The notes: a model not told the origin generated them from the letters alone. A DNA stretch of 64,000 nt from a virus (IMGVR_UViG_3300035522_000179:1-64000), one strand, 5' to 3'. Positions 16,761 to 49,749 are shown, counted from the first letter of the stretch. Numbers and translations are program-made.

Positions 16761-17579
16761 TTAGATGTTATTAGCTATGTTAGGATCAATAGGAGAACCA
16801 TATGAAATACGCCCCGAATGAAAGTTATCACTCGATACTGCGGCATCATAAATCTTCTCAGCGGTCATCTGGTTGAACTGGTGGTAATCTGAAATCCCGT
16901 TCCCTTGTTTACAATGATGAAATTCCCGTATTTCAAGAATCCTTTTTCTCAATAGGGATAAGCAATCCATAGCAGATGACCGAAACGCGGAATTTTCTTG
17001 TCCATACACAGTAAACGCTTTTAACATCCCCTCTATAGAATACATAGCTCTTTGAGGATCGTAAAGTGCCTCTTCACATGTAATCACTTTCACAGAGTAA
17101 ATAGCATCTAAAAATGCTGTAAACCATCCACTGAAGACGCCGCAAAGAATGGTTTCGTCTAAAACAACAATTTTATCTATTTTATTACTCGCGGCATCGT
17201 ACAGTAATTTGTTAAATCCAGGTCTACTGAAATCATATTCATATCCATAATCTGTATAAACGTTGATTGCAGATATATCAATTGTGGAATCATAATTTCT
17301 CAGATACTTCATGACTTCAATTTCTTGTTTATCCAACCGATCCATATTAAAGTCAGGTACCCTTACATAAACTGCAATTCTGTCTTTCACTTCCGGATAC
17401 TTCGAATGCCCATTCCGAAATTGTTGCAACTGATCATGAGTATAATACCTCCTGTTGTTGTTGGGATCTCTGTGCGCAACGAATTTCCCAGAGGCATCCC
17501 ACCTTCTCAATGTCTTTTTACTAACGTTTAAAAATTTTGCAACTTCATCGATAGAAATTCTGCCATCCATCCTGTTCAT
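16761..17579 (-). CDS. IS607 TnpA-like protein (MerR-type HTH plus serine-recombinase domain), catalytic Ser replaced
   Basis: EVAKFLNVSKKTLRRWDASGK...RRYY HTH; YVRVP instead of YxRVS; SRPGFNKLL...IDKIVV. Confidence 0.75.
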   Translation of the reverse strand: MNRMDGRISIDEVAKFLNVSKKTLRRWDASGKFVAHRDPNNNRRYYTHDQLQQFRNGHSKYPEVKDRIAVYVRVPDFNMDRLDKQEIEVMKYLRNYDSTIDISAINVYTDYGYEYDFSRPGFNKLLYDAASNKIDKIVVLDETILCGVFSGWFTAFLDAIYSVKVITCEEALYDPQRAMYSIEGMLKAFTVYGQENSAFRSSAMDCLSLLRKRILEIREFHHCKQGNGISDYHQFNQMTAEKIYDAAVSSDNFHSGRISYGSPIDPNIANNI

Positions 17580-18370
17580 GTAAACTTCTTTCTCCTCTCT
17601 TTACCGTTTTACTAATCTGATTTTTCAGTTTCACGTTTTCTATATTATAATATTTGGATAAATACTTATCTACAGCAAGACGCCGTCCGTACTCATTTAT
17701 CCAATTTCGTGTTCTTCCTTCCACCAAAATGAAGTGAAGTAAATTTTTCCAGAAATTTCTGGTCTCTAATCTCGTTACAATCGTTCTACAGTTTTCAAGA
17801 ACCGTCTGATTGATATCAATAACTACTACTTCTACATTGAGTAGTTTGAGAATCTTTTGAATATCATCCATAGCATTAAACCCAAACAAATAATCGTTCG
17901 GAACATAGATTCTTCGTATTTTACCTTCTTTTATTTCATTCAGAAGTTTTTCAAATTCAGGTTTTACCACATTATCGTTATACACATAATCAACATAAAT
18001 ATTATGCGCGACAAGATGCCTTGCTGATAACGTGTTTAAAATAAACTGAGTATAGGTTTCTGCCAAATTATGAGAGTATGTGGTTTGTACTTCTTCGACT
18101 CCACCATCCTCTTCATCTTTCATTACTGTCTCCCTTGATACTCTAATGTAAATCACATCTTTTTTGCCATCAACTACTTCCGGCACCTTTAAGTATTTTT
18201 CAACAAACCTTTTAACGGTATAATCTGTGAAATAATATTTTCCATTTGCAATTTTCACAGGTCTGATCAAGTGCCGTTCCAGATAGATTTTTAATTCCTC
18301 ATCTGTTATCAAATACTTGGTCTTCAATTCATCTTCTGACATATAATAGTTTGGTATGCATGTTTCCATC
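17545..18370 (-). CDS. Divergent IS607 TnpA-like serine recombinase
   Basis: Start METCIP with aaggag RBS; VIYIRVS, KPEFEKLLNEIKEGKIRRIYV, LNVEVVVI; lacks the DRLxR motif. Confidence 0.65.
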
Positions 18371-18914
18371 TGTAATCTCCTTTCGAATTCGTTTTCTGAA
18401 GTCCTGAAACCCTTGTATTTACTGGGTATTTTCACGATGTTGTACATTGTTACGCATTTGACGATTTGGCGAATTTGCGTTTGTCCTACTTTGCCGGGAA
18501 CTTTGGGATAGATCCTATTTTTGTTGTCCAACTTCCCGAAAATACTGAACGAAAAACCGCGATTTTTCAATATTTTTTGCAATTGATAATCTTTCGATAT
18601 ATAAAATTACAAATATCAATTGTTATATTATGTCAAAGATAATTTAGTACCAAAACATTGCTGCCGCGGAGCGGTTAACCGGTAAGAGAATCAGTTCTAT
18701 GGGGTTCGTATCCGCGGTCTTTAAGTTTCGACTCCAGATGTAATCTCGCCTCTGGCGTTAGCCTTATACTATTATATAATATAGGGAAAAAGCGAATTTC
18801 CAAAAAGGTTCTTTCGCTAAATAATTGTTATAGGCTAATGAAAAATAATTTAAAAATATTTTCAACTATCCTCCTTTCTATTTTCTAACTAATAAAATAA
18901 TATATTTCTATTAT

Positions 18915-18996
18915 ATAATTCAAGAAGAGAAATCAAATGATTTCTCTTCTTGAATTATTCTACAAAATGAATTTATAAATTCATTTTGTAGAATAA
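18915..18996. repeat. Two abutting perfect palindromes (44 bp with AA core; 42 bp) between divergent early promoters
   Basis: ataattcaagaagagaaatca-aa-tgatttctcttcttgaattat and ttattctacaaaatgaattta-taaattcattttgtagaataa. Confidence 0.85.
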
Positions 18997-33165: not shown

Positions 33166-33642
33166 TCAAATCATTTCAAGTAACAAATCTCTTTCTTCTT
33201 CACTGATTTCTCCATACCGACAAGATTCGTAAATCTCCAAACGAAGATCATCCGTAGATTCTTTGATTCCTTTGAGTTTTTTCTGTGCATCCAGATATCT
33301 GCCTGCTTTGTATTTTTCTTCCGGAGATTCTCCCTCATTGCCATGATACTGCATCCAGTTGCTTTTCGTGTTTTTTGCATATTGTTTGCCGGCATCACTC
33401 TTACATCCACGAGGACTGTATTTTGTGATATCAGACCCAAGTCTATTAAATGCATCAGTTTTTATAGCACTCATTTTGGTATGATAGTAATCAGCTTTTT
33501 TATGTGCAAGATTAGTATTCATACTATCAAATATGTCACGTTTTTTCCTTGCTTTGATATATTCATCCTGTAATTTATTCGCCCATTTGTTATACGCATT
33601 TGCTTCCATCACGACATCATACAATTCATCAAAATTAGCCAT
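33166..33642 (-). CDS. Tagged cassette protein, type A
   Basis: MANFDELYDVVMEANAYNK...KESTDDLRLEIYESCRYGEISEEERDLLLEMI. Confidence 0.85.
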   Translation of the reverse strand: MANFDELYDVVMEANAYNKWANKLQDEYIKARKKRDIFDSMNTNLAHKKADYYHTKMSAIKTDAFNRLGSDITKYSPRGCKSDAGKQYAKNTKSNWMQYHGNEGESPEEKYKAGRYLDAQKKLKGIKESTDDLRLEIYESCRYGEISEEERDLLLEMI

Positions 33643-33690
33643 AATTATTTCCCTCTCTTTTTACAGATTTTATTGGTCTACATTTCTGTA

Positions 33691-33734
33691 CCTGTATAAA
33701 ACAATAATACTAAAGTATTATTGTTTTATACAGG
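33691..33734. repeat. 44-bp palindrome, copy 1 (core AA)
   Basis: cctgtataaaacaataatact-aa-agtattattgttttatacagg. Confidence 0.95.
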
Positions 33735-33852
33735 AGGAAAAAACTTTTTATAAAAATTTATCATCCCCTCCTGTTTTTAAATCCCTAGAAAAAACAAATT
33801 AATAAATGATTTCAAAAACGAAAAAAATAAGAAAGATAAAGGAGAAAAAGAA

Positions 33853-34578
33853 ATGGAACAGCCATATACACCTAGGAAATCAAAGGACGAATTGAAATCC
33901 GTAAGGTTCGTATTAAAAGATGTTAAGAAAAGAGTTCAGCAAGCAAAAAAAAACGGGGACGTAGATGAATTAGAAAAATGCAATGAAAAAATAGATGTAC
34001 TAATCGATCATATGAAAAAAGTAAAATTGAATGGGATAGGGTTTGAAGAACAGAGAAAAACGTATGCAAATATGTCTAAATTGTCGTTAGAAATTGGAGC
34101 AGTTTTTGGTTTGATGTATGTGGCACAAGGTAAATTACTAGAGAAATTTATGAAGAAATCTATCGAGAATCGTTCAATTGAATATAGTGCAGTTTATACG
34201 TGCCCTCCTAGCAAAGAACGAGATAAATTAGAGGAAGAGTGTGACAGACGATATGATAGAGATTATAAAATTGCTTCTAATTGGGAAAGCATGAAGGATT
34301 TAACTGGAATCATATCTATGGGAGGTGCTGTAGGAGCTATAGAGACCGGAATAGAAAGTACCGGTGGGGCAAGATTACAAATGAAAATGAATAAACAGAT
34401 AAAAATTCTTGAAAAAATGAGTAGAGAGTTAAAAGCAGAAATCCAGCAATTGAAATCTCAACAGCGTGGTATAAAAGAGTCTGTGAATGATGTAAGACTT
34501 GAGATTTATGAGTCTTGCTATTACGGTGATATTACAGAGGACGAGAGAGATCTGCTTCTGGATATGATTGAAGAGTAA
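33853..34578 (+). CDS. Tagged cassette protein with unique payload
   Basis: Ends KESVNDVRLEIYESCYYGDITEDERDLLLDMIEE. Confidence 0.85.
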   Translation: MEQPYTPRKSKDELKSVRFVLKDVKKRVQQAKKNGDVDELEKCNEKIDVLIDHMKKVKLNGIGFEEQRKTYANMSKLSLEIGAVFGLMYVAQGKLLEKFMKKSIENRSIEYSAVYTCPPSKERDKLEEECDRRYDRDYKIASNWESMKDLTGIISMGGAVGAIETGIESTGGARLQMKMNKQIKILEKMSRELKAEIQQLKSQQRGIKESVNDVRLEIYESCYYGDITEDERDLLLDMIEE

Positions 34579-34628
34579 TATAAAACTAGATAGAATCATT
34601 ATTTGATTCTATCTAGTTTTTTCTTTTC

Positions 34629-34686
34629 CTGTAAAAATAACAATCTATCTAATAGATAGATTGTTATTTTTACAGTTTTATACAGG
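34629..34686. repeat. Variant 47-bp palindrome plus half-site
   Basis: ctgtaaaaataacaatctatcta-a-tagatagattgttatttttacag followed by ttttatacagg. Confidence 0.8.
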
Positions 34687-34711
34687 TAGAGTATTATAAG
34701 GAGGATTATAA

Positions 34712-35248
34712 ATGAGTAGATTTGATGAATTGTATGATGTGGTGATGGAAGCAAATGCGTATAACAAATTGGCGAATAATTTAAAAGATGAGTATGATAG
34801 AGAACGCAAGAAACGTGATAGTTATCGTCGTCGTTTAAGAAATTTGTCACCTGATAATCTCCTAATTAACAAAGCTGATTATAATACTAACAAAGTTGAT
34901 TATACTAACAAAGCTAATTATCATGATACAAAAATGCATGTTGCAGATACGGCGTACTATAATCAGATCGGTGGTAATATCCAAGATTACTGTCCTCACG
35001 GGAATAGATTTGGTACTTGCGAAGATTATAGAATTGCAAGAAAGAAGAAGAAAGAGTGGATGAAAAACCATGGAAATGTTGGAAAATCTCCGGAAGAGCG
35101 ATACAAAGAAGGCAGATATTTAGACCAACAGAAAGAACTCAAAGGAATCAAAGAATCTGTGGATGATATCCGTTTGGAGATTTATGAATCCTGTCGGTAT
35201 GGAGATATCTCGGAAGAAGAAAGAGATTTGTTATTGGAAATGATTTAA
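34712..35248 (+). CDS. Tagged cassette protein, type A
   Basis: MSRFDELYDVVMEANAYNK...EIYESCRYGDISEEERDLLLEMI. Confidence 0.85.
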   Translation: MSRFDELYDVVMEANAYNKLANNLKDEYDRERKKRDSYRRRLRNLSPDNLLINKADYNTNKVDYTNKANYHDTKMHVADTAYYNQIGGNIQDYCPHGNRFGTCEDYRIARKKKKEWMKNHGNVGKSPEERYKEGRYLDQQKELKGIKESVDDIRLEIYESCRYGDISEEERDLLLEMI

Positions 35249-35296
35249 AGAATCTAGAAGAGATATATTAATATATCTCTTCTAGATTCTATTTTT

Positions 35297-36637
35297 TCAG
35301 ATCATCATTATTAGCTCATCTCTATCTTGCTCTGTTATCAATCCGTCATTAAATGATTCCATAATCATTAATACTGTATCAATATCTGAATCATCTCCAG
35401 ATTCTAATTCCAATGTTCTATCACCAGCATAAAAGTTCGGAAATAATGTTGTAATAATATCAGTTCTTCCTTGGAACATGGTATCAATTGCGGTTCTTGT
35501 TGCTGCAGTAATTACAAGATACTCCCCATTCACATTACCATCCAAATAATTCTGGTAAATCGTTTGAAGATCATTTATGCTTTCTTGAATCTCTTTTTTT
35601 ACTTTAGGATTCACGCCCGTTTTTGCGAGTTCTCTTTTCAGAAGTTCGATTGCGATAGTCGTTCTATTGGAAGAACTACCATGCATAGGACTAGTAAACT
35701 CATCTAAAATACTTGCTTCCGCCAATCGAATATCCGTTAATACTCGTATAATTGGGAAAGATGAAACTTTCTTAGTTCTTTTAAATTGCATTGATTGATC
35801 CGATTTATATAAAGCGGAGATAAGTTCTGGTCCATAACCATACGCAATAGCAAAAGAATCCGCAAATTCTTCTGATTTTTTCCCAGGTAACGTAAACAAT
35901 TGACTCACGGGGGATAATAAAACTTCAAGAGGTGTAAAAGGAATATTTATATAGGTGGATAATTTACGGATTTGAAGACCAATCCAATCGCCGGATTTAA
36001 GTAAAAATCCGTAAATAGATTTTATGATTGGAATCTTTTCAAAAATAAAACCTATAATTTTTTCACAAATCATATTAATCCTTCCAGGAATGAACTTTAA
36101 AGAATTCACATTATGAAATAAAGTACTTATCGGATCTATAAAATTTCTTTTTCTTAATTCATTCACAATACGAATGAACTTGATTAACCATGAAACCCCT
36201 TTATAAAAACTAAAATCAAAATTATGACCAATTTCATGCAAGATTAGGGCAGTGTACTCTCTCGGGGTAATGTCAATAGAGCGAACAAGTGCAGTTGATA
36301 AATTGATCAATGCAACGGTAGAGTGCGTTTTGTCATAATACCCTTTTTTTGAATCTATCTCAAACATACATTTTCCGGATACAACAGAATCTATAGAAGA
36401 ATATGTGGCTATTTGAGGAGAGAGTTCGGAATCTTTATACCACATGCAATAGGTTTCTTTAAACCCAAATTGCTTTGTGATTAAATTCTGTAATATTTTA
36501 TTCTCTGTGGAATTAGTTACATCATAATGGGGATCAATTTTAATTTTATCTATTATAATTCCAATTTGTTTTTCAATATTTGGAATCAATCCAGCTTTTC
36601 CGTAATATGCTTCCTGATATACATCAAACTCTTTCAT
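35297..36637 (-). CDS. Zinc metallopeptidase (HEXXH, M48-like) with divergent C-terminal tag
   Basis: LILHEIGHNF, SEEFADSFAIAYGYG; ends IMESFNDGLITEQDRDELIMMI; begins MKEFDVYQE-A. Confidence 0.75.
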   Translation of the reverse strand: MKEFDVYQEAYYGKAGLIPNIEKQIGIIIDKIKIDPHYDVTNSTENKILQNLITKQFGFKETYCMWYKDSELSPQIATYSSIDSVVSGKCMFEIDSKKGYYDKTHSTVALINLSTALVRSIDITPREYTALILHEIGHNFDFSFYKGVSWLIKFIRIVNELRKRNFIDPISTLFHNVNSLKFIPGRINMICEKIIGFIFEKIPIIKSIYGFLLKSGDWIGLQIRKLSTYINIPFTPLEVLLSPVSQLFTLPGKKSEEFADSFAIAYGYGPELISALYKSDQSMQFKRTKKVSSFPIIRVLTDIRLAEASILDEFTSPMHGSSSNRTTIAIELLKRELAKTGVNPKVKKEIQESINDLQTIYQNYLDGNVNGEYLVITAATRTAIDTMFQGRTDIITTLFPNFYAGDRTLELESGDDSDIDTVLMIMESFNDGLITEQDRDELIMMI

Positions 36638-36806
36638 TTTATATAATTTTTCCTTTCTATTCAGTTACGGTTCATATTAGTATTTTGTTTTGTACATTTT
36701 CAAACTAGCAATTTTAATATAAACATATTTTTAAAATAAAAAATTTGTTTTTATACAGGAATACTTTTTATAGTAAAATCTTTTTATAAAAAGGAGAAAA
36801 ATAACT

Positions 36807-37547
36807 ATGGCTAATTTTGATGAGTTGTATGATATGATTAATGGTGCAACTTATGAATCCATGTTTGAGATTGACGATGATATGGATACAGATGATATTG
36901 CATATATCGAGAGTTGCAGGGATCTTACTGAGTACCTCGAAAAAACACGTATCACAGACAATGATGGAGAAGGTCCTTCTACTTTTAGAGAAAAACTCTC
37001 TAGATTTGCATTTAATAAAAAAGAAGATCTCAGAGAGGGCAAAGCTCGCATACAAGGTGCATTCGACAACGCAAGGATTAAGAAAATTCAGAAAGATATA
37101 GAGAAGAGAGAAAACTCTGATGGTGACGAGACTGTTCCTCAAAAGAAAATTTTTGCTCATTTGAGTAAAGGTGAAATCCTTGCAGGTGTTGGACTCTTAG
37201 CAGCCGCTGGTGTTGCTTCTCTTACCGTGATCAGACATAAGACAAAGAACAAAGAGATTGTTAAGACTGTAGATGATTTGAAGAAAGAGATTGAAGAGAT
37301 CAAGAAGTCTGCTAAAGCAGGTGAAATTTCTGTTAGAGAAGCTTGGAGTGAAACAAGAAGAATTAACAAAGAGATCAAAGCTCTCGAGAAAGCTGCTGAG
37401 GCTGAAGAGAAAGCTAATGCTGCTGAGGAAGCGAAGAAGGCTATGAAGGAGTCTGCTGATGATGTAAGACTTGAGATTTACGAGTCTTGCTATTACGGTG
37501 AGATTTCCGAGGACGAGAGAGATCTGCTTCTGGATCTTATGGACTAA
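36807..37547 (+). CDS. Tagged cassette protein with TM segment
   Basis: MANFDELYD start; ILAGVGLLAAAGVASLTVI; ends EIYESCYYGEISEDERDLLLDLMD; half-site ttgtttttatacagg upstream at about 36745. Confidence 0.85.
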   Translation: MANFDELYDMINGATYESMFEIDDDMDTDDIAYIESCRDLTEYLEKTRITDNDGEGPSTFREKLSRFAFNKKEDLREGKARIQGAFDNARIKKIQKDIEKRENSDGDETVPQKKIFAHLSKGEILAGVGLLAAAGVASLTVIRHKTKNKEIVKTVDDLKKEIEEIKKSAKAGEISVREAWSETRRINKEIKALEKAAEAEEKANAAEEAKKAMKESADDVRLEIYESCYYGEISEDERDLLLDLMD

Positions 37548-37605
37548 TAAAACAATAAATGACCATGAACTTATCGATTATGATAAGTTCATGGTCATAT
37601 TTTTT
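37526..37605 (+). repeat. About 80-bp direct repeat (gene end plus terminator), second copy at about 43535-43613
   Basis: cttctggatcttatggactaataaaacaataaatgaccatgaacttatcgattatgataagttcatggtcatattttt present twice. Confidence 0.9.
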
Positions 37606-37612
37606 TATTATG

Positions 37613-38464
37613 TTAAATCATCTCCAAAAGTAAATCTCTTTCTTCTTCCGAGATTTCTCCATACCGACAGGACTCATAAATCTCAAGTTTGATATCATTG
37701 TCAGAAGTAGATTCTTTCATGATTTTAGAAAATACTGCGTTTCTTGCAGATACTTCTCTCATGGTTTCCTCATATCTTTTATCTATTTCAGCAAGACTGG
37801 TCTCGATCTTTGCTTGAACAGCAGGGGAATCAACTTTCACTTTTTTAACTTCTCTATTGAGTTGTATAAGTAATTTTTTCAAATCCTTATAAATCCGATG
37901 CAATTCTGTTACGAGATCATTGTATTTGGTAACTTCTGCATCTATTAATGAAAGTTTTTTTGTAGCATTCACAAATTCCTTTGAATTGTAATTCTTATTC
38001 ATTACTTCAGTTGTATTTGATTTTGCTGAAGAGATTCCTCCAACATCACTGGCAACTTTAGTAATAGATAATCCTCCGTTGGAATTTTCAGTCAATGTTA
38101 CCGTAGGAGCTCCTGATGTTTCAGCGATTATAGCATAAGCCAATGTCATAGTTTCCAGGCGACTGGCATGTTCATTTAATTCCTTCGTAACTTTATTAAT
38201 TTCTTTTTCTTTTTTTAGAATCTCATCCCGAATTGATTTCAATTGCGGATTTTTGTTGTATCCATTCTCTTTTCTCTTATTATCTGTGATGACAAGTCCA
38301 GCAACAAGCCCAACAACAGCAGAGACCAAAGCTCCGATACCTACCATTGGAGCATATTTTTTAATTTTTTGCTTTGTGGCAGGTGACATTTTTTCTACGT
38401 AATAATTATCTTCATTAACCGATTCTACTGTGCAATATAACTCTGTAAATTTATCCATATTCAT
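37613..38464 (-). CDS. Tagged cassette protein, type B (TM plus coiled coil)
   Basis: MNMDKFTELYCTVESVNEDNYYVEKMS; ends EIYESCRYGEISEEERDLLLEMI. Confidence 0.85.
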   Translation of the reverse strand: MNMDKFTELYCTVESVNEDNYYVEKMSPATKQKIKKYAPMVGIGALVSAVVGLVAGLVITDNKRKENGYNKNPQLKSIRDEILKKEKEINKVTKELNEHASRLETMTLAYAIIAETSGAPTVTLTENSNGGLSITKVASDVGGISSAKSNTTEVMNKNYNSKEFVNATKKLSLIDAEVTKYNDLVTELHRIYKDLKKLLIQLNREVKKVKVDSPAVQAKIETSLAEIDKRYEETMREVSARNAVFSKIMKESTSDNDIKLEIYESCRYGEISEEERDLLLEMI

Positions 38465-38494
38465 TTTCTCCTTTTTAGAATAAGAATGAGTCAA

Positions 38495-38538
38495 CCTGTA
38501 TAAAACAATAATACTTTAGTATTATTGTTTTATACAGG
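38495..38538. repeat. 44-bp palindrome, copy 2 (core TT, inverted relative to the others)
   Basis: cctgtataaaacaataatact-tt-agtattattgttttatacagg. Confidence 0.95.
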
Positions 38539-38586
38539 TACAGAAAGCAGATTAGTACAAATATAAAAAAAGAGAGGGAAATAATT

Positions 38587-39096
38587 ATGGCTAATTTTGA
38601 TGAATTATATGATGTTGTAATGGAAGCAAATGCGTATAACAAATGGGCGAATAAATTGAAAAATGAGTATGATGATCATATGAAATCATATCATGATAAT
38701 CAAGACAAAATAATAAATAATAATAAATCCATTTTTGACCCCAGATCTAAAGTATGGGGGTATGCGGCAGATGCTAAAAAACATTTCAATGCCGCATATG
38801 ATATCGAGGATCAATATCGTTCTCAGACTGGTGAAAAAGAAATGAATTATTCACCACACGGAGACGAAAGAAGTGTTTATCAATCTTCTGTTCCGAAGCA
38901 AACTTGGATGAAAAAACATGGAAATGTTGGAAAATCTCCGGAAGAGAGATACAAACCAAATCGTTATTTAAACATCCAACAAAAAATAAATGGGACGAAG
39001 GAATCTGCAAATGATATTCGTTTGGAGATCTATGAGTCTTGTCGGTATGGAGAAATCAGTGAAGAGGAAAGAGATTTACTTTTGGAAATGATTTAA
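38587..39096 (+). CDS. Tagged cassette protein, type A
   Basis: MANFDELYDVVMEANAYNKWANKL...EIYESCRYGEISEEERDLLLEMI. Confidence 0.85.
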   Translation: MANFDELYDVVMEANAYNKWANKLKNEYDDHMKSYHDNQDKIINNNKSIFDPRSKVWGYAADAKKHFNAAYDIEDQYRSQTGEKEMNYSPHGDERSVYQSSVPKQTWMKKHGNVGKSPEERYKPNRYLNIQQKINGTKESANDIRLEIYESCRYGEISEEERDLLLEMI

Positions 39097-39147
39097 AGTA
39101 ATAAAAATCTGGTAAAGGAATTTTAAATTCCTTTACCAGATTTGTTT

Positions 39148-41622
39148 TTATAATAATTCAGACATCTCTCGTTCAATTACTTCTAACACATCGATATCTT
39201 CAAATGTCGATTCCACTACGGGTCTCTCTTCCACTTTGGGATTTAAAATAGAATCTACAAAGTCATTAATTGCCGATTCCATTTTTTGATCTTCATCTGT
39301 TTCTTTGCTTTCTTTCAGATGTTCTACCCAGTCTTTCAGCGCGCCCATATAGCGTTTCTTCCATTTTTCAAATGCTTCATTCGGCGTTCCATCTTTTTCG
39401 TTGTAAGTATATGCTCTTACATAAATTCCAGTTGTATCGGAGTTTTTATTCAAATACCATCCTTCTGGAATCGTATCAAACTTATACTTCTTATCAAAGG
39501 TCAGTCGTGCAGTAGTGTAAATCTTTCCATGGTATACACCATCTCGATAACCATCTTCTTTAATTCTAGATCTATTATGTCCAGAGCAAGAATACTTCAC
39601 TGTATATCCAAGCTTATTCAAAAGATTTACGATGGGTTTAATATCCTCATCGATCTCATCTTCATCACTTTCTGTGACAACCAGTTCCTTATCAAAGTCA
39701 ATCTGATTCAAAACCTTCTCACAGATTTTTTCTGTTTCATTCTGAGAAACCAAATCGGTTGCAAATCGGTTCACTCTTTCTGTAAACTTGATATCATCCA
39801 GTTTGGTGTCAAACACAGATTCAAATACGTTATAGCAAGAATCAAACAAATTCGTACTAGGAGATTCATTGATCAGATCAACCATGTAATCAAACACATT
39901 ATCTGTATCAACACAAGCCTCTTCACAAACAGAATTGATCATAAACACCAATTCTTCTTTTCGGTTTTCAACGGATTCAGAGATGGTGTTGTAATTGCAA
40001 TCCTTTGCTTTCTTCATAAGAGAAAGTTTTTTATCACTCACCTCTTCAAAGGAATTTTCATAGTACGGATGATTCTCATTAAGAGTTCCATTATACGTGT
40101 CATTTACCCACTCGTTAATAATGATACTCTCCTTTCTAAAGTTCTTAACAGATTCCAAGACATCTTTTTCAGATTTCCTTTCTTCTCTTTCTTTCTTTTT
40201 CGCAGCTTCCTCTTTCTTTGCTCTCTTAACCTCTTTATAGTTTTCGATTGCATGATCAAAGGCGTTTTCTGCTTTATCTCGGTTTGCATCGTAGTTCGGA
40301 TCATCTTCCGGATCTTTTTCCAGAATCTTCTTTAACTTTCTTGCAGCGTCGCGAACATCGGATGCATCTGATTTCAATCCTAATTCTACCTTGTCTTCAA
40401 TTGCAGATTCTTTTACTGCACCTTGAATTTCATAAGAAATATCAACTCCAGTATTTACAGAACTAAATTCGCAGGTAATCAACATCTCTTTTATGCGTTT
40501 TATATAATGAGTGATCTGTCCATTTTCTTTTACTGGACTAAATCCACAAGAAGTGATGGTTTTCCGAATCATATTAGGATCTGCTTTATCGTTTGAAAAA
40601 GAAAATCCATATTTATTCTTTTTCGTGTTCAGACAAGATTTAAAACTAGTTGCATCATCTCCAGGATTAGAAAGTTTTAAATCTTTCTTCAACTTATCAA
40701 ACAGCTTTCTTGCTTCGGTATCAAAGGTGGGATTGTTTTTAAATACTGCAGCAGCTTCCGTAGTAACAAAGAGATTATTTGAACGGAACCATTGACCAGT
40801 ATATCCCAAAACGGATTCCAAAGAGTTAAACCTAGGAATCATTCTATCCTCTTCTCTTACCACATCCTCTGTTAAATCGTCTTCATTGGAATTAATTTCT
40901 GCATCTGTACTAGAAACCATATCCTTCACAGATACTCCGGAAAGATCTTTCGATAACACATTTCCAGTGAGAGGAATTACAGGAGCCATTGCACCAACAG
41001 ATTCATCGTCATTAAACAAAGACTGTGTAAATCCAGTGAGTACTGATGCATCCTCTAAAGTGATTGCGCCAGTAAGTGCTTTGCTACAGATTACTTTTTC
41101 GTATAAGTAATCTCTACTTACCCTTTCATCCGGAAAAGCACGGTAAAGATTTCTTGTAAGATCATCAAATCCATCCTCTCCAGCAGACTCGATGTATTTT
41201 GCAAGTTCATCTCTTTTCTCATCTGCTACAAGACTTGCCATCTTTCCTACCGTAGAATCGTTTTCCCAGGTAGATTCCAAAGTATAATCTTCATAAAAAG
41301 AATCTCCTTCCCTTCTTTTGATGATCTCTTTGAAAGGAAGAACTGCTTCTCCAAAGAATAAATTATTTACAGTTGGAATCTCATCTCCAAGCTCGGAAAC
41401 ATCCAATCCTCTTTCTACCAATGCTTCTTCATCTGCTCTTACAATATCAATCATTGCAAGGGCTTCGGATTCCGTAAGAAATCCAAAATTATAGTTGTCA
41501 TTAATTGCATCTAAAATTTTAATATCTTCTGCGACTTTCGCTTCCATGTAACGAGAAGTAAAAGGAATATCAAAAGTTGCAGGAATAGGTCGCATGTCAA
41601 AATTACTCATTTTTTCCACCAA
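39148..41622 (-). CDS. Large late protein rich in xES/xEA sites with a C-terminal TYW3-like domain; probable internal head protein
   Basis: Many MEA/LES/KES/TES motifs; EIDEDIKPIVNLLNKLGYTVKYSCSGH; late motif upstream. Confidence 0.55.
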   Translation of the reverse strand: MVEKMSNFDMRPIPATFDIPFTSRYMEAKVAEDIKILDAINDNYNFGFLTESEALAMIDIVRADEEALVERGLDVSELGDEIPTVNNLFFGEAVLPFKEIIKRREGDSFYEDYTLESTWENDSTVGKMASLVADEKRDELAKYIESAGEDGFDDLTRNLYRAFPDERVSRDYLYEKVICSKALTGAITLEDASVLTGFTQSLFNDDESVGAMAPVIPLTGNVLSKDLSGVSVKDMVSSTDAEINSNEDDLTEDVVREEDRMIPRFNSLESVLGYTGQWFRSNNLFVTTEAAAVFKNNPTFDTEARKLFDKLKKDLKLSNPGDDATSFKSCLNTKKNKYGFSFSNDKADPNMIRKTITSCGFSPVKENGQITHYIKRIKEMLITCEFSSVNTGVDISYEIQGAVKESAIEDKVELGLKSDASDVRDAARKLKKILEKDPEDDPNYDANRDKAENAFDHAIENYKEVKRAKKEEAAKKKEREERKSEKDVLESVKNFRKESIIINEWVNDTYNGTLNENHPYYENSFEEVSDKKLSLMKKAKDCNYNTISESVENRKEELVFMINSVCEEACVDTDNVFDYMVDLINESPSTNLFDSCYNVFESVFDTKLDDIKFTERVNRFATDLVSQNETEKICEKVLNQIDFDKELVVTESDEDEIDEDIKPIVNLLNKLGYTVKYSCSGHNRSRIKEDGYRDGVYHGKIYTTARLTFDKKYKFDTIPEGWYLNKNSDTTGIYVRAYTYNEKDGTPNEAFEKWKKRYMGALKDWVEHLKESKETDEDQKMESAINDFVDSILNPKVEERPVVESTFEDIDVLEVIEREMSELL

Positions 41623-41839
41623 CTTTCCATAGAATTATCAGATTGTTTTTGCATCTAAGGCAAACTAACATTAAAATAATGAAAATACCAAATAGACGTA
41701 AAATGCTTGTTTAAGTTTCTGATTTGTTTTAATCTCCCATTGTTTTTTGAATAAGGAAGACACTCTGTATGTAGTGTCTTCCTTATTCTTTTCGTTAAAT
41801 TTACACTGGGAAACAATTTTTTAAAGAGGTGAAGATAAT

Positions 41840-42199
41840 ATGATTACAAATACATCAAATATCTTTGAATTTAAAACAAAAGAAACAGGATATATTGCAA
41901 AAGCTTGTGCTGCGCCAGAAGCAGGAGAGAAAAGAGAAATTTATATTCCAAGACTTATGCCGAATATAAAATCAGGAACCCCAAAAACATCCACTCTATC
42001 TTCTAGAGGAAATTTGGTGTTTAAAAACGCACCCGCTTGTAAAGTTCAAGCAGCAACCGTTTTGAAATCCCAAAACTATATCATGGTTCCTTATGAGAAA
42101 AATAAAACATGGGATGATCCAGAAATTAAGAGTATGACCCAAATTACTTGCAATTGCAAAAATAACACCATTGCTGGAATCACATTCTCAAATGATTAG
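41840..42199 (+). CDS. Small late protein, possibly baseplate hub/spike-related
   Basis: IYIPRLMPNI; AACA-N6-TAA at 41812-41824; adjacent to the gp53-like gene. Confidence 0.4.
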   Translation: MITNTSNIFEFKTKETGYIAKACAAPEAGEKREIYIPRLMPNIKSGTPKTSTLSSRGNLVFKNAPACKVQAATVLKSQNYIMVPYEKNKTWDDPEIKSMTQITCNCKNNTIAGITFSND

Positions 42200-42210
42200 A
42201 GGAGTAAACT

Positions 42211-42630
42211 ATGAGTACACAAAATAGTAGTACACTGGAAACCCAGGTATATAATGAATTGAAAAATGATTTGATTTATAGGGATTTAAATTCTACGCTT
42301 GAAATATTAGATCGAGAGAGCAATGAAAAGATTGTAATACCTTATATTTCTACGGTATCAAAATATATGGATTTTTTAAAATCAATTATATTAGAAGTGG
42401 AATTGACAGATATTCAATATGAGAGATATCGGCAAAATCCTCATGCGGTATCGGAAGCATTGTATGGAACAACGCAGTATTGGGATATCTTACTGAAACT
42501 AAACAACTGTGTTAGTAGATTTGAGTTCAACAAAAAGAAAATCAAATACTACGACCCATTAGAATTAGTGACGTATTTGAATGAGTTAGTGATAAAAGAA
42601 GACGAACTTGCAAATACAAGTTCGTACTAA
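42211..42630 (+). CDS. Baseplate wedge protein (T4 gp53/LysM-like)
   Basis: YRQNPHAVSEALYGTTQYWDILLKLNN. Confidence 0.65.
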   Translation: MSTQNSSTLETQVYNELKNDLIYRDLNSTLEILDRESNEKIVIPYISTVSKYMDFLKSIILEVELTDIQYERYRQNPHAVSEALYGTTQYWDILLKLNNCVSRFEFNKKKIKYYDPLELVTYLNELVIKEDELANTSSY

Positions 42631-42654
42631 TTTTTATAATTTACCCCCCCCCCC

Positions 42655-42698
42655 CCTGTATAAAACAATAATACTAAAGTATTATTGTTTTATACAGG
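42655..42698. repeat. 44-bp palindrome, copy 3 (core AA)
   Basis: Identical to copy 1. Confidence 0.95.
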
Positions 42699-42728
42699 TT
42701 GACTCATTCTTATTCTAAAAAGGAGAAA

Positions 42729-43556
42729 ATGAATATGGATAAATTTACAGAGTTATATTGCGCAGTAGAATCGGTTAATGAAGATAATTATTACGTAGAA
42801 AAAATGTCTGCAGACGCTAGTTCGAAACTTAAAAAAGCTGCAGCAATAGCAGGTGTTGGAGTACTTGTTTCTGGTATTGTTGGACTTGTTGCTACAGATA
42901 GTAAGAGGACAGAATATGGATATAATAAAAATCCTGAGATGAAAGTTCTTCGAGATCAAATTCTCAAGAGAGAAAAAGAACTCAAAAAAGCAGTAACTAA
43001 CCTTGAACAACAAACAAAAAGGGTGGAAGCAATTGCACAAAGTTACAATACAATTGCAAACCAAATTGGAAAAGTTACTATTACATTGGAGGAAAACTCC
43101 AATGCAGGGTTAAGCATTAAAGAAGAGAATAAAATTGGATTTATTAGGGGAAAGAGTTCCGAAAAGGAAAATCCGAATTATTCTACGAAAATCTATATGG
43201 ATGCTTCTAAAAAAAGAGAAATCTTAAATATGGAAGTTGAAAAATACAATGTGCTAGTTAAAGAAGTAAACGATATTTATAAAGATTTACAGAAGTTGCT
43301 CAAAAAATTCAATAGCGCTGTGAAGATGTTGAAAGTGTCACCTAAAGTACAGGCAAAACTTACTGAAGAATTGAGTAAGATTGAAGAAAGATATAGTGAC
43401 GCTTTAACCGATATTAATGAAAGAAATGCCCAGTTTTCTAAATTTGTGAGAGAATCGGAAGAAGATACAAATGCAAAACTTTTTGTCCATGAGTCTTATC
43501 GATGTGGTGATATTACAGAAGAGGAAAGGGACATTCTTCTGGATCTTATGGACTAA
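42729..43556 (+). CDS. Tagged cassette protein, type B (TM plus coiled coil)
   Basis: MNMDKFTELYCAVESVNEDNYYVEKMS; ends VHESYRCGDITEEERDILLDLMD. Confidence 0.85.
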   Translation: MNMDKFTELYCAVESVNEDNYYVEKMSADASSKLKKAAAIAGVGVLVSGIVGLVATDSKRTEYGYNKNPEMKVLRDQILKREKELKKAVTNLEQQTKRVEAIAQSYNTIANQIGKVTITLEENSNAGLSIKEENKIGFIRGKSSEKENPNYSTKIYMDASKKREILNMEVEKYNVLVKEVNDIYKDLQKLLKKFNSAVKMLKVSPKVQAKLTEELSKIEERYSDALTDINERNAQFSKFVRESEEDTNAKLFVHESYRCGDITEEERDILLDLMD

Positions 43557-43619
43557 TAAAACAATAAATGACCATGAACTTATCGATTATGATAAGTTCA
43601 TGGTCATATTTTTATTACA

Positions 43620-44138
43620 TTAAATCATTTCCAAGAGAATATCTCTTTCTTCTTCACTGATTTCTCCATACCTACAGGATTCATAAATCTCCAAACGAAG
43701 ATCATCCACAGATTCTTTGATTCCTTTGAGTTCTTTCTGTTGGTCTAAATATCTGCCTGCTTTGTATCGTTCTTCCGGAGATTTTCCAACATCACCATGC
43801 TTTTTCATCCAATTTTTTTTAACACATTTAAAAGCAAATCTATCTCCGTAAGGTTCATCGTCATTTTTAAATCCATGTCTACTGTAATCTTTCAAACTAC
43901 TCATTCCGTCAACACTGTCATTATATCTACCTACTGCATGGGATCCTTTTTCAAAATGATCTTCAGCTTTCTTTCGTAATTCTTTTTTATATTCAGGGTC
44001 ATCTGCGTTATTAGCTAGTCTATTAAGTAATATATGCTTTTTTACATCCTTTTTATATTCATCCTGTAATTTATTTGCATATTTATTATATGCATTTGCT
44101 TCCATCACGACATCATACAATTCATCAAAATTAGCCAT
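43620..44138 (-). CDS. Tagged cassette protein, type A
   Basis: MANFDELYDVVMEANAYNKYANKL...EIYESCRYGEISEEERDILLEMI. Confidence 0.85.
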   Translation of the reverse strand: MANFDELYDVVMEANAYNKYANKLQDEYKKDVKKHILLNRLANNADDPEYKKELRKKAEDHFEKGSHAVGRYNDSVDGMSSLKDYSRHGFKNDDEPYGDRFAFKCVKKNWMKKHGDVGKSPEERYKAGRYLDQQKELKGIKESVDDLRLEIYESCRYGEISEEERDILLEMI

Positions 44139-44186
44139 AATTATTTCCCTCTCTTTTTACAGATTTTATTGGTCTACATTTCTGTA

Positions 44187-44230
44187 CCTGTATAAAACAA
44201 TAATACTAAAGTATTATTGTTTTATACAGG
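44187..44230. repeat. 44-bp palindrome, copy 4 (core AA)
   Basis: Identical to copy 1. Confidence 0.95.
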
Positions 44231-44259
44231 GGGGGGGTAAATTATAAAAAACTTCAAAA

Positions 44260-44302
44260 AAAATAAGCTAAGAGATGTATGTTGCATCTCTTAGCTTATT
44301 TT
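44260..44302. terminator. Bidirectional terminator
   Basis: aaaataagctaagagatg / catctcttagcttatttt. Confidence 0.75.
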
Positions 44303-44319: not shown

Positions 44320-44454
44320 CTACTTGTTCTCTTCATACCATTCCCGGTATTCATCCTCGGTTGAGAATAACTGATACGCATCGAACCCTTTTTCATCTTT
44401 CCCAATAAAGCCTTCACAACCATTTGATACAAGATAAAATTTGTACTCTAACAT
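44320..44454 (-). CDS. 44-aa protein (not in ORF track)
   Basis: MLEYKFYLVSNGCEGFIGKDEKGFDAYQLFSTEDEYREWYEENK; aggaaaggag RBS. Confidence 0.65.
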   Translation of the reverse strand: MLEYKFYLVSNGCEGFIGKDEKGFDAYQLFSTEDEYREWYEENK

Positions 44455-44707
44455 ATTTTTCTCCTTTCCTTTGGTGGCTTAAAACAGTTTATTAATTTCA
44501 TGTTTTGAGACATTTGAAAATAGTGATAAATAGTGCAAAGAACTTTTATAATTGAGTATGTATACATTTATACATACTCAATTATCTGTGTATTTCATGC
44601 AAATAATATATGAATCAATTTTCCTTGTTTTCAATTTATTTTTATATACTAAAATACACTTCATTAATCACAAGAAACTGATAAAATGAAGAAAGGATGG
44701 TATTAAC

Positions 44708-46837: not shown

Positions 46838-47542
46838 ATGGTAGATAAAAACGATATTCGATTTTGTTCTTCTGCCACACTGTTTCAAAATTCCACCTGT
46901 GTGTTTGCAGAATATCTAGATTGTGTGCAACTGTCTGGAATGGTTTTATTAGATACCATAAGAAAAAGCACAAAGTTAGAAAAATACCTTGACTTAGAAT
47001 TAATTCGATATTTGGAATTGCCATCTTTATTGGAGTACTATATCAATCGAAAAGATAAAAATCCTTTGGCGGATTTATGGAAAGGAGATAGTGTTCCATA
47101 TGAAGAGTTGGATGAACAGGTAAGAGAATTTTATCGATCAAATGAAATCTTTTTTGATGTACAGTTAACAACCACGGTTCATCCGTTGTTAAAAAACTTA
47201 TTAGCAAATGCTCTTACTAATGATATTCGAATCTATTGTGAAGAACCTTATCCAGGATTAGAAAACGATATAAAAGAAAAATTTGATGGGAAGGCAACCC
47301 TTGTAACAGGAAAGCTGGAAGATGTTTTGCAAACTATTCCTGGAGATACCACTTATTTTTTTGCAGACATTATGAATGTCCTTACCTTGGAGGAAGTCGG
47401 GAAACTGGATTACTCCGCAATTATGATTCCTTCGGATTATGGTTACAACTATGATGACTCCGAAGAAAAGAAGTTTTTAGTAGATATGAATCAGCTAGCA
47501 GAAAAGCATATTTTCAAATGGGGAACCTACAAAACTTGTTGA
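46838..47542 (+). CDS. Hypothetical protein
   Basis: ATG at 46838 with ggagg RBS (the track start at 46544 overlaps SSB). Confidence 0.7.
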   Translation: MVDKNDIRFCSSATLFQNSTCVFAEYLDCVQLSGMVLLDTIRKSTKLEKYLDLELIRYLELPSLLEYYINRKDKNPLADLWKGDSVPYEELDEQVREFYRSNEIFFDVQLTTTVHPLLKNLLANALTNDIRIYCEEPYPGLENDIKEKFDGKATLVTGKLEDVLQTIPGDTTYFFADIMNVLTLEEVGKLDYSAIMIPSDYGYNYDDSEEKKFLVDMNQLAEKHIFKWGTYKTC

Positions 47543-47601
47543 TTTCTAATGATCTTAAAAACAGAACCTTAACAAATTTCAGTTTTAGAAAGGAAGAACA
47601 A

Positions 47602-49749
47602 ATGGAAGATCGAGTTAGTTTTATTGAAGGAGTAACCAAATACGACCCCGAAATAAACGTGGTTGGGAAAGAAGTAATGGATGAAAGAGTTGCCGTGGTA
47701 TTTGATCAGATTGCAGAAATTCTGCAAAAATCTTTGGGACCTATGGGCGCTCATACCATTATTTCTCAGTCCCCTTTTTATCATGTGACGAAAGATGGAT
47801 TTACCATCATGAAGAACTTAAGATACAATTCTGAGTATGGTTATGTGGACCAGGTGATTGCAGGAATGATCTCAGACATCTGTGGAAGATTAAACTTCGC
47901 AGTAGGAGATGGCACAACTTCTGCAGTTGTTGCATCCAACCATATGTATCAGGTTTTCTTAAGTAATAACGAAGAACTGACACAGAAGTTCTTCTTGCCT
48001 AGAAATATTATCAATCGTATGAAAGAACTTACGAATGATATCATAGAGGATTTAAGTTCCAATGCAACCGATATCAAGTCTCTTCCGGTTGATGAGATGT
48101 GTAACGCAATAAGAGACGTTGTATACATCTCTTCCAATGCGGATAAGGAAATGACCGATATTATTGTGAACTTATACAAAGAACTGGAATATCCAGCAAT
48201 CAATGTGGTAAAATCCGCAGATGGAGTTACCAGAGGAAAAGTGATTGATGGATTTATGTTTCCTGCAAAGCTTATGGATAAGCTTTATGTAAATAACGAT
48301 AACAAAACGCAGGAAGGAACGGATTACGACATTCTGATCTTTGATCACAAGGTGGGATTACCGGCTTATAATTATATCTTAAAGCCCCTCTCCCATATGT
48401 CGAAAACAAGAGGTCGTAAGCTTATTTGTTTGGCTCCGAACTACGATGAAGTAGCATTACAAGGAGATATCCAAAATGCTTTGAATGCAGAGTATCGGGC
48501 AACCAGAGATATTTCTTTGGTTCTTATGGGATATAAAGCAACGACATCGAACGACAGAGCCAGAGTTACGGATTTGGCAATGCTTTGCAATACCCAAGTA
48601 ATCACGAAATCCATGGAGAATGAACTTTGTGCAAAAGTAGAGAAGATCCTCATGAATCCGGATAATAACGGCGTAATAGCAGATTGTGATTTCCCTTTCA
48701 ATATGGATTTTCGAAATATCGAAGGAATTAAAATTGTTCTTCCATTGGATCATGTTACAGTGACCTATACGGAGGAAGAGTTTGGCACGATGTTCTATAG
48801 TGACGCTTCTCGTACAGAAGAAGATATCTATTTGAGAGTCGGATTTGTTGGTGAGGTATCTCTGGCATTGGACGGAGAATCCACCTTCAACAAATTCTAT
48901 TATGATCAAATCATTTACGATAGATATTTAAAAGATGCAGAGATGCAGCTTGAACTCGTAACAGAGAAATACAAGAGACTTGCTACTTTTAACTTCGAGA
49001 TTGATGAAGCAAGAAAGAGACTTCTTGGGTTGAAACTGAAGATGGGTCAGATCGAAGTCGGTGCAACCTCTGAGTTTTCTCAGGAGTTTTTAAGAGATGC
49101 TATGGATGATGCCGTACTTGCGGCACAGTCTGCTTATTCCAATGGAATTATCCTTGGTGGACACATCAGCCTATTGAGATCGATTCGGAACCTGATGAAG
49201 AAATCTACAAATGAATCGGATAAGTTTTTATTGGAGTGCTTCTTTGAAGCGTTCTGTCATGTTCGATTCTCTGTACTTGGAAATGGTTTCGACAATAAAG
49301 TCATTAGCATAAATAATCTTTTGAAGGAATATCGAAAGGAAGACAAGTATAAAGATGCACCGTCAGATACAAGGATTATCTCCGATGAGTTCTTCAATAT
49401 TTTACAAAAGTACTCAGGAGTTGAAATCACTACAAAAGATGAAAATTCGTATGCGAAAATGTTTACTTTTATACACTGTCTTTTGAGTGAACTTCATATC
49501 GATAACTCAGATAAATATAAAGATATCACCTTGTTTGATTTAATCGTTGAATTTGAGATTTACATGGGTCTTGTGTTAAATTTGGATATGAATCAGTCCA
49601 GCACCAAGCCAGTAATCTATTTCGACGATAAAGTGGTAAATAGTCTTGCAACGGATCGAGAGATTTTAATTGCTTCTTCTGACCTTGTTGGTTTGCTTAC
49701 CACAGGAAATCAGTTGGTAATTTCTAGATCAAACACCGCAAGATATTAA
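47602..49749 (+). CDS. groEL: GroEL-like chaperonin
   Basis: SLGPMG, VTKDGFTIMK, VGDGTTSA, DDAVLAAQSAYSNGIILGG; late motif at 47560-47572. Confidence 0.9.
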   Translation: MEDRVSFIEGVTKYDPEINVVGKEVMDERVAVVFDQIAEILQKSLGPMGAHTIISQSPFYHVTKDGFTIMKNLRYNSEYGYVDQVIAGMISDICGRLNFAVGDGTTSAVVASNHMYQVFLSNNEELTQKFFLPRNIINRMKELTNDIIEDLSSNATDIKSLPVDEMCNAIRDVVYISSNADKEMTDIIVNLYKELEYPAINVVKSADGVTRGKVIDGFMFPAKLMDKLYVNNDNKTQEGTDYDILIFDHKVGLPAYNYILKPLSHMSKTRGRKLICLAPNYDEVALQGDIQNALNAEYRATRDISLVLMGYKATTSNDRARVTDLAMLCNTQVITKSMENELCAKVEKILMNPDNNGVIADCDFPFNMDFRNIEGIKIVLPLDHVTVTYTEEEFGTMFYSDASRTEEDIYLRVGFVGEVSLALDGESTFNKFYYDQIIYDRYLKDAEMQLELVTEKYKRLATFNFEIDEARKRLLGLKLKMGQIEVGATSEFSQEFLRDAMDDAVLAAQSAYSNGIILGGHISLLRSIRNLMKKSTNESDKFLLECFFEAFCHVRFSVLGNGFDNKVISINNLLKEYRKEDKYKDAPSDTRIISDEFFNILQKYSGVEITTKDENSYAKMFTFIHCLLSELHIDNSDKYKDITLFDLIVEFEIYMGLVLNLDMNQSSTKPVIYFDDKVVNSLATDREILIASSDLVGLLTTGNQLVISRSNTARY

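Follow-up and report, generated by a model that had tools for sequence, protein, structure and literature searches.

A repeated 44-bp palindrome in an uncultured jumbo phage: a putative late promoter whose two central bases may set its direction

The first 64 kb (64,000 nucleotides; hereafter the window) of the 249,613-bp IMG/VR virus record IMGVR_UViG_3300035522_000179, which derives from an uncultured jumbo phage of 36% G+C, harbours four identical 44-bp palindromes amongst a cluster of related genes, each with two asymmetric bases at its centre, and the question raised by this locus is what such elements do. An earlier note, made from the sequence alone, had likened them to the crossover sites of a site-specific recombinase and had offered a bidirectional late promoter or operator as an alternative. 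The late promoter proved the better supported of the two, on the strength of an asymmetry in promoter scores between the two strands, the lack of any other promoter for two of the adjoining genes (A1 and A2), and the canonical promoters possessed by homologues of those genes. The reading to which we give slightly better than even credence is that the palindrome is a late promoter whose centre sets its direction, that it has been copied with an expanding gene family, and that it doubles as a homology-driven crossover point. Searches of GenBank phages, by DNA or protein, revealed no close relative of this phage record, and no description of palindromic, bidirectional, centre-directed phage promoters was found in the searchable literature.

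The element has the structure CCTGTATAAAACAATAATACT-NN-AGTATTATTGTTTTATACAGG (21 + 2 + 21), and an exact pattern search confirmed the four copies described in the earlier note, with 0 mismatches between them; 100 shuffles returned zero matches to the pattern, and none are expected by chance. No further copy was identified in the whole record at ≤3 mismatches. This genome-wide check, which the note had proposed, did retrieve one extra half-site, a lone left-arm-like sequence (CCTGTATAAAACAA...) at genome 225835-225855 on the minus strand, situated approximately 90 nt upstream of a late gene (224018-225769, minus strand) that lies outside the gene family discussed below. A variant at 34629 and half-sites near 34677 and 36745, also reported previously, are real. 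The palindromes of the window and their derivatives are as follows.

33691-33734, core AA on the plus strand: pal0, with gene B1 to the left and gene C1 to the right
38495-38538, core TT on the plus strand: pal1, flanked by the divergent genes A1 to the left and B3 to the right
42655-42698, core AA: pal2, with AACA at 42664-42667
44187-44230, core AA: pal3, with gene B4 to the left, on the TT-reading side
34629-34686, plus strand: variant element upstream of gene B2, consisting of a palindrome and then a relic half-site
36722-36759, plus strand: decayed palindrome upstream of gene D, with 75% dyad symmetry

The variant is a separate perfect palindrome (23 + 1 + 23, 34629-34675), and directly after it, at 34675-34686, comes a relic of the right arm of the main palindrome, GTTTTATACAGG. 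Its inner arms are unlike those of the main palindrome, yet AACAAT, the 7-nt spacing and TAA are retained, and it is identical at 47 of 47 positions in the related strains L025 and L026, the flanks of which are 85-90% identical. The decayed palindrome is homologous to the main palindrome in the AA orientation; in it a canonical AACA-N6-TAA (36722-36734) precedes the half-site TTTGTTTTTATACAGG (36744-36759).

The phage encodes homologues of RNA polymerase, two of them beta-like (with Rpb2-domain matches) and one a beta'-like open reading frame (ORF) with an Rpb1-domain match. An AR9-like early motif, TATATTAT-N6-G, has about 50 occurrences in the genome, mostly ahead of genes, and a late motif, AACA-N6-TA(A), was found upstream of 49 genes genome-wide, usually 30-60 nt ahead of the ATG. 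Relative to these 49 genes with a spacer of six, the same boxes upstream of genes were separated by five bases in 10 cases and by seven in 20. In Bacillus phage AR9, the late consensus is AACA-(6N)-T-A/G, the last base being the start site; recognition takes place on the template strand, and departures from the consensus in spacing or bases are found in 17 of 118 late promoters (PMC5312081; PMC5449584). The palindromes resemble the late promoters of the AR9 non-virion polymerase (Lavysh 2017, PMC5312081; Sokolova 2017, PMC5449584) in their AACA box, their T(-1)/A(+1) start and their placement 30-90 nt ahead of late genes, and the phage itself resembles AR9 in its multisubunit RNA polymerase homologues and its early motif. 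They differ in having a 7-nt spacer, and in that two predicted promoters are superimposed in one perfect 44-bp palindrome, their directions told apart by the two central bases.

Each arm of the palindrome contains an AACA, seven bases on from which lies the centre, and the upstream context ATAAAACA resembles that of the canonical late sites of this genome. A weight matrix was constructed from 40 canonical sites, which themselves scored a median of 15.3 bits and a minimum of 5.9 bits. At N7, the strand reading AA scored 15.7 bits, whilst the strand reading TT scored 5.4 bits, under the training minimum, and 9.8 bits at N9; the variant palindrome scored 11.9 bits at N7. As a measure of background, a score of 12 bits at this spacing is attained by just 0.65% of all AACA sites. 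A start with T at -1 and a purine at +1 is found on the AA strand only (T-A-A), the opposite strand reading T-T-T. Between the palindrome and the ATG of A1 and of A2 there is no other AACA or early box, and the A-type homologues in two related phages have a canonical AACA-N6-TAA about 37 nt upstream. The dyad-symmetric arrangement AACA...TGTT occurs, genome-wide, only ahead of this gene family and at one terminator-like site. The predicted start of pal2 is the A at 42676, 59 nt upstream of the A2 ATG, and that of pal1 towards A1 is at 38517 on the minus strand.

These data suggest a model in which each palindrome would constitute two fully overlapping, back-to-back late promoters for the phage multisubunit RNA polymerase (of the AR9 non-virion type), with an AACA box supplied by each arm and both predicted starts coinciding at the dyad centre. 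As the consensus start (T at -1, A at +1) exists on the T-A-A strand alone, the choice of which flanking gene is transcribed would fall to the 2-bp core. From the matrix scores and the start-site bases we infer both promoter activity at the 7-nt spacing and the on/off effect of the core. In the present genome A1 and A2 would be ‘on’, along with those sides of pal0 and pal3 that have no gene or a self-sufficient one, and B1, B3 and B4 would lie on the weak T-T-T side. The C1 gene beside pal0 carries its own canonical late promoter (AACA 33793-33796, predicted start 33804). Just outside pal3 lies a bidirectional terminator (44260-44302), at which a 44-amino acid ORF (44320-44454), driven by an early promoter at 44610 on the minus strand, comes to its end; a start at pal3 in the present core orientation would yield a transcript of roughly 95 nt into this same terminator.

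The genes served by the palindromes belong to one family of 12 members, eight at 33-44 kb (window 33166-44138) and four at 125-134 kb (genome 125239-134571), comprising types B (158-180 amino acids), A (273-281 amino acids), C (233-243 amino acids) and D (246 amino acids). The members in the window are listed below.

33166-33642, minus strand: B1, B-type, 158 amino acids
33853-34578, plus strand: C1, family member, 241 amino acids
34712-35248, plus strand: B2, 178 amino acids
36807-37547, plus strand: D, 246 amino acids, with a B-like N-terminus plus the family C-terminal module
37613-38458, minus strand: A1, A-type, with the ATG at 38458 picked by ribosome-binding-site spacing
38587-39096, plus strand: B3, 169 amino acids
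42735-43556, plus strand: A2, 273 amino acids, 52% identical to A1
43620-44138, minus strand: B4, 172 amino acids

A C-terminal module of approximately 32 amino acids (KES..D.RLEIYESCRYGEISEEERDLLLEMI) is common to the family, as in part is an N-terminal motif, and the middles of the proteins are variable; hydrophobic segments and a coiled-coil-like middle are seen in several members. Neither Pfam nor PHROGs provided a function for the A, B, C or D proteins. Homologues of the family are present in other uncultured jumbo phages (P0008-P0011 and P0015-P0017); for P0018 no word-sharing homologues were found. Scans of viral and metagenome contigs for the B family returned one distant locus only, without a palindrome, and the distant relatives that harbour B or A homologues (L005-L010 and L027-L029) have no palindromic promoters. 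The palindrome sequence itself was absent from scans of IMG/VR and JGI metagenomes, which may omit near-identical records.

The distance from palindrome to start codon is 36 nt for the A genes and 48 nt for the B genes. Every gene in the region was found to have its own terminator, hence each needs its own promoter. Within the window both A genes lie on the AA-reading side and three B genes (B1, B3 and B4) on the TT-reading side, so that the consistent polarity claimed in the earlier note holds here; it does not extend to a contig from another sample, described below, in which the core is flipped between the same flanks. The further claim, that the sites are identical although the adjacent genes have diverged, also stands in part. 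Paralogue identity does fall to 40-60%, though only past an exact stretch that continues beyond the palindrome for 63 nt in A1 and A2 (107 nt in all) and for 95 nt in B1 and B4 (139 nt in all), and it climbs again at the 3' ends of the genes. This extended identity weakens the argument that the palindrome alone is conserved, and the mosaic pattern amongst the paralogues points to gene conversion. On the favoured reading, the palindrome is one part of the 5' control region of a 12-member late-gene family, copied with the genes and kept identical by conversion.

Since the palindrome and its adjoining 63-95 nt form the longest exact repeats in the region, the palindromes would also be sites of homologous recombination, at which the locus could be rearranged either by inversion or by movement of the unit containing A2 and B4. 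This A2-B4 unit (42655-44230) consists of two genes bounded by two direct sites. The features relevant to rearrangement are as follows.

38432-38538 with 42655-42761: exact inverted repeat of 107 bp, comprising the palindrome and the 5' end of the A gene
42631-42654: left flank of the A2-B4 unit, TTTTTATAATTTA then C11
44231-44250: right flank of the A2-B4 unit, G7 then TAAATTATAAAAA

Contigs from other samples, retrieved via identical proteins, were compared with the window. Its arrangement is kept in L015, L017, L030, L031 and L032, the first of which carries the parental pal1 junction. A junction of A2-palindrome-B3, with the polarity of the core kept, is present in L016/L020 (JGI 3300043109, 2,665 bp); the two sides of the palindrome in L016 match window 43890-42655 and 38495-39967, respectively, each at 100% identity. 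This is the expected product of inverting 38.5-42.7 kb between oppositely oriented sites, and the same junction would arise were the A2-B4 unit inserted at 38495. The crossover can be placed only within the 107-bp exact repeat, and homologous recombination is sufficient to account for it because A1 and A2 are identical for 63 nt past the palindrome. Of the site-specific inversion or excision proposed previously, what survives is a junction at or beside the palindromes, for which a break within the core is one possible position; a reading that invokes a dedicated recombinase is not supported. Rearrangement at the palindromes probably happens, and probably without a dedicated recombinase.

A second contig, L018 (JGI 3300035521), agrees with window 34247-33122 apart from an inversion of the two core bases at the 33691 site. 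This flip was judged probably real, since de Bruijn assembly could produce it as an artefact only at a k of roughly 22 or below. Inversion of the core on its own would be the outcome of a small hairpin-mediated inversion, or of conversion between oppositely aligned copies of the palindrome. Hairpin-associated small inversions that are recombinase-free have been described in plastid DNA (Kelchner and Wendel 1996, reviewed in PMC12371153). The plastid inversions are similar in that no dedicated recombinase is needed to flip a short spacer lying between inverted repeats, and in that the spacer is polymorphic among close relatives; they differ in lying within non-coding spacers with no known regulatory effect, whereas the bases flipped here are a predicted transcription start (PMC12371153).

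Several observations weigh against the palindrome being a late promoter directed by its centre and rearranged by homology. Main and variant palindromes alike have a spacer of 7 nt where the consensus is 6, the copy at gene D being N6, and outside the family N7 is barely enriched over N5 (approximately 6 vs 4 in the zone of 25-75 nt). Both pal2 and pal3 serve a gene from one arm only, yet the whole palindrome is perfect; this fits recent copying and equally fits a need for the dyad, for instance by a dimeric protein or a DNA structure. Were the TT side indeed inactive, this genome would contain three intact but silent B genes; alternatively, these genes may employ a weak start (N9, 9.8 bits) or a promoter of an unrecognised class. 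The recombinant junction comes from one 2.7-kb contig and could be an assembly chimera across the 107-bp repeat, a possibility that arises because the poly-C side of pal2 assembles poorly in several samples. The core flip, likewise, was seen in one short contig, out of five that cover the 33691 site.

The perfection of the dyad bears most directly upon the possibility that the palindrome is chiefly an operator, with a dimeric phage protein bound to the dyad repressing or activating the embedded late promoter and so co-regulating the family. Candidate binders are two early-expressed proteins encoded in the window, which retain a MerR-type helix-turn-helix (HTH) and, with the resolvase domain that both also carry, have the architecture of IS607.

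16761-17579, minus strand: IS607-like protein 1, with a MerR-type HTH and a resolvase domain
17545-18582, minus strand: IS607-like protein 2, a paralogue in which the RVS motif is kept

The genes for these adjacent, distant paralogues (24% identity) lie behind early promoters at 18783 and 18904, both on the minus strand. They may encode domesticated DNA-binding proteins, though nothing ties them to the palindrome. An operator would account for a dyad that is perfect even where one arm alone faces a gene (pal2 and pal3), as well as for the perfection of the variant palindrome and its conservation across strains. Nonetheless, the spacing of the outer blocks differs between the two palindromes (21 + 2 + 21 vs 23 + 1 + 23), which would be awkward for a single dimer, the part conserved between them consists of the promoter blocks, and perfect symmetry is also explicable by recent copying with arm-to-arm conversion. 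We consider it unlikely that the palindrome is chiefly an operator, although such a role could coexist with that of a promoter. The divergent gap adjoining the IS607-like genes, itself rich in early promoters, contains two overlapping perfect palindromes of its own (18915-18996), one of 21 + 2 + 21 with an ‘aa’ spacer and the other of 21 + 0 + 21, unrelated in sequence to the 44-mer.

The same pair of proteins provides the nearest thing to an enzyme for a reading along the lines of the original proposal, in which the palindromes are crossover sites of a serine-type recombinase, similar to hix or att sites, that inverts segments and excises or integrates the A2-B4 unit as a 1.5-kb circle with a break in the core. 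Recombinase-driven invertible promoters and segments are exemplified by Hin/hix, Gin/gix, the fimS switch and the Bacteroides invertons, and sites of the hix type have a 2-bp asymmetric core between half-sites of roughly 12 bp. The 21 + 2 + 21 geometry with its asymmetric core conforms to this pattern. So does the topology of the A2-B4 unit: its two sites are direct, and an excised circle would carry the junction present at 38495, both as the earlier note had recognised. The outer flanks of the unit are reverse complements of one another over 13 nt, save for the length of their homopolymer runs, which is what would be left by a circle inserting into a single site inside a longer palindrome. 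The L016 junction retains core polarity, and two serine-recombinase homologues are encoded 16 kb away.

The search for a cognate recombinase, however, yielded only these two homologues, and their catalytic motifs are degenerate. They scored 58.7 and 22.3 bits against the IS607 model, far under its cut-off of 110. Protein 1 has RVP instead of RVS, with proline in place of the nucleophile serine, and alignment to phiC31 integrase and TnpX shows that the two DRxxR arginines are missing from both proteins; we infer from these substitutions that neither is an active recombinase. In the whole genome there was no match to a tyrosine recombinase (Phage_integrase), a large serine recombinase, a Y1 HUH transposase or a protelomerase (PF16684). 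The L016 crossover may lie anywhere within the 107-bp repeat, so homology suffices, and the core-only flip of L018 is not a product of serine recombination. Inversion of a large segment would leave expression unchanged because every gene comes with a promoter and terminator of its own. The sites number only four, every one of them tied to a single gene family, and their polarity is explained by the shared ancestry of the divergent promoter region as a whole. A site-specific recombinase acting at the palindromes is therefore quite unlikely.

As in invertons, inverted repeats flank a segment that would set the direction of expression, and both orientations were seen in natural samples at one site (the flipped one in one of five contigs); unlike invertons, the segment is just 2 bp, the arms are 21 bp and perfect, and no active recombinase was found. 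Unlike hix and gix sites, the half-sites are much longer, at 21 bp, no catalytically competent serine recombinase was identified, and the orientation of the core is not fixed to the flanks, to judge from L018 at the 33691 site. Integron gene cassettes are mobilised by recombination of attC with attI or attC, catalysed by a tyrosine recombinase of the IntI type. The A2-B4 unit is similar to such cassettes as a small gene unit between palindromic sites, topologically equivalent to an integrated circle, and differs from them in the absence of an IntI-type recombinase, in perfect palindromes without extrahelical bases, and in having its own promoters and terminator. Integron attC sites were ruled out, there being no Phage_integrase match and the sites being perfect and not imperfect. 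A protelomerase target was excluded by the absence of a ResT/TelK-type resolvase (PF16684) match, and a transposon with terminal inverted repeats by the two cores being direct and not inverted and by the lack of a target duplication.

The homopolymers at the ends of the A2-B4 unit span 42644-42656 (C13) and 44229-44237 (G9). Their lengths vary between the contigs of other samples (L019 and L023), and assemblies break there. The last 30 bases of L019 (Logan SRR11794809) read ...TTTTTATAATTTA-C11-G18 and end where the palindrome would begin; this is more likely a poly-G sequencing artefact at a homopolymer and hairpin, though it could represent an ‘empty site’ without the palindrome. A C11 run also occurs at about 134000 of the genome, inside the terminator ahead of a fifth B gene.

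Many other long perfect hairpins exist in the genome, each unique, and these are terminators, being flanked by A- and T-runs and situated at gene 3' ends; the 44-mer is the sole repeated one, has no T-run and is at gene 5' ends. It was ruled out as an intrinsic terminator on account of this location and its absence from the output of a terminator scan, which reported neighbouring hairpins and none of the four copies. That the element is nothing but an RNA or DNA structure (a terminator, insulator or RNase III hairpin), or a functionless selfish repeat hitch-hiking with duplications, is very unlikely: its fold as a 20-bp hairpin (DNA, -17.6 to -18.2 kcal/mol, z about -9) and the many hairpins that serve as terminators in this genome speak for a structure, and against it stand the features just described, a start at the centre that would leave only one arm in the RNA, the lack of any Rfam match other than sub-threshold noise, and the cross-strain conservation of the variant palindrome, which argues for function.

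Two further readings of the region as a whole were discarded. A replication origin at 33-44 kb was ruled out, as the GC skew tracks the gene strand and shows no feature there, and sigma-70 promoters were ruled out, as the region has no excess of their sites (47 found vs 53.9 expected). Elsewhere in the genome, a 40-nt early-promoter context, ccttaagaaagc-TATATTAT-tcagaatgaaagtgaatatc, is present in three distant copies (window 2766, minus strand; genome 64054, plus strand; and 162888, minus strand), pointing to duplication of an early leader or a small gene. The phage also encodes a chaperonin (window 47518-49749, plus strand), a 743-amino acid protein with a Cpn60/TCP-1 chaperonin domain (E 9e-18).

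Should the palindrome be no more than a shared promoter, it would represent a regulatory repeat of the usual kind within a growing gene family, and the rearrangements would amount to ordinary repeat-mediated recombination. It is tentatively possible, though we hold it rather doubtful, that the palindromes form a recombinase-free switch, in which a 2-bp inversion, arising by hairpin-mediated template switching or by conversion among copies, toggles one late promoter between back-to-back A and B paralogues, virions within a population come to differ in the cargo or structural proteins they express, and the palindromes act as portable joints by which two-gene units could move or invert. If this is true, an enzyme-free inversion of two base pairs would generate heterogeneity akin to phase variation in a virus, by means of a switch far smaller and simpler than known invertons, and would inform how start sites are chosen by the template-strand-reading polymerases of AR9-like jumbo phages.

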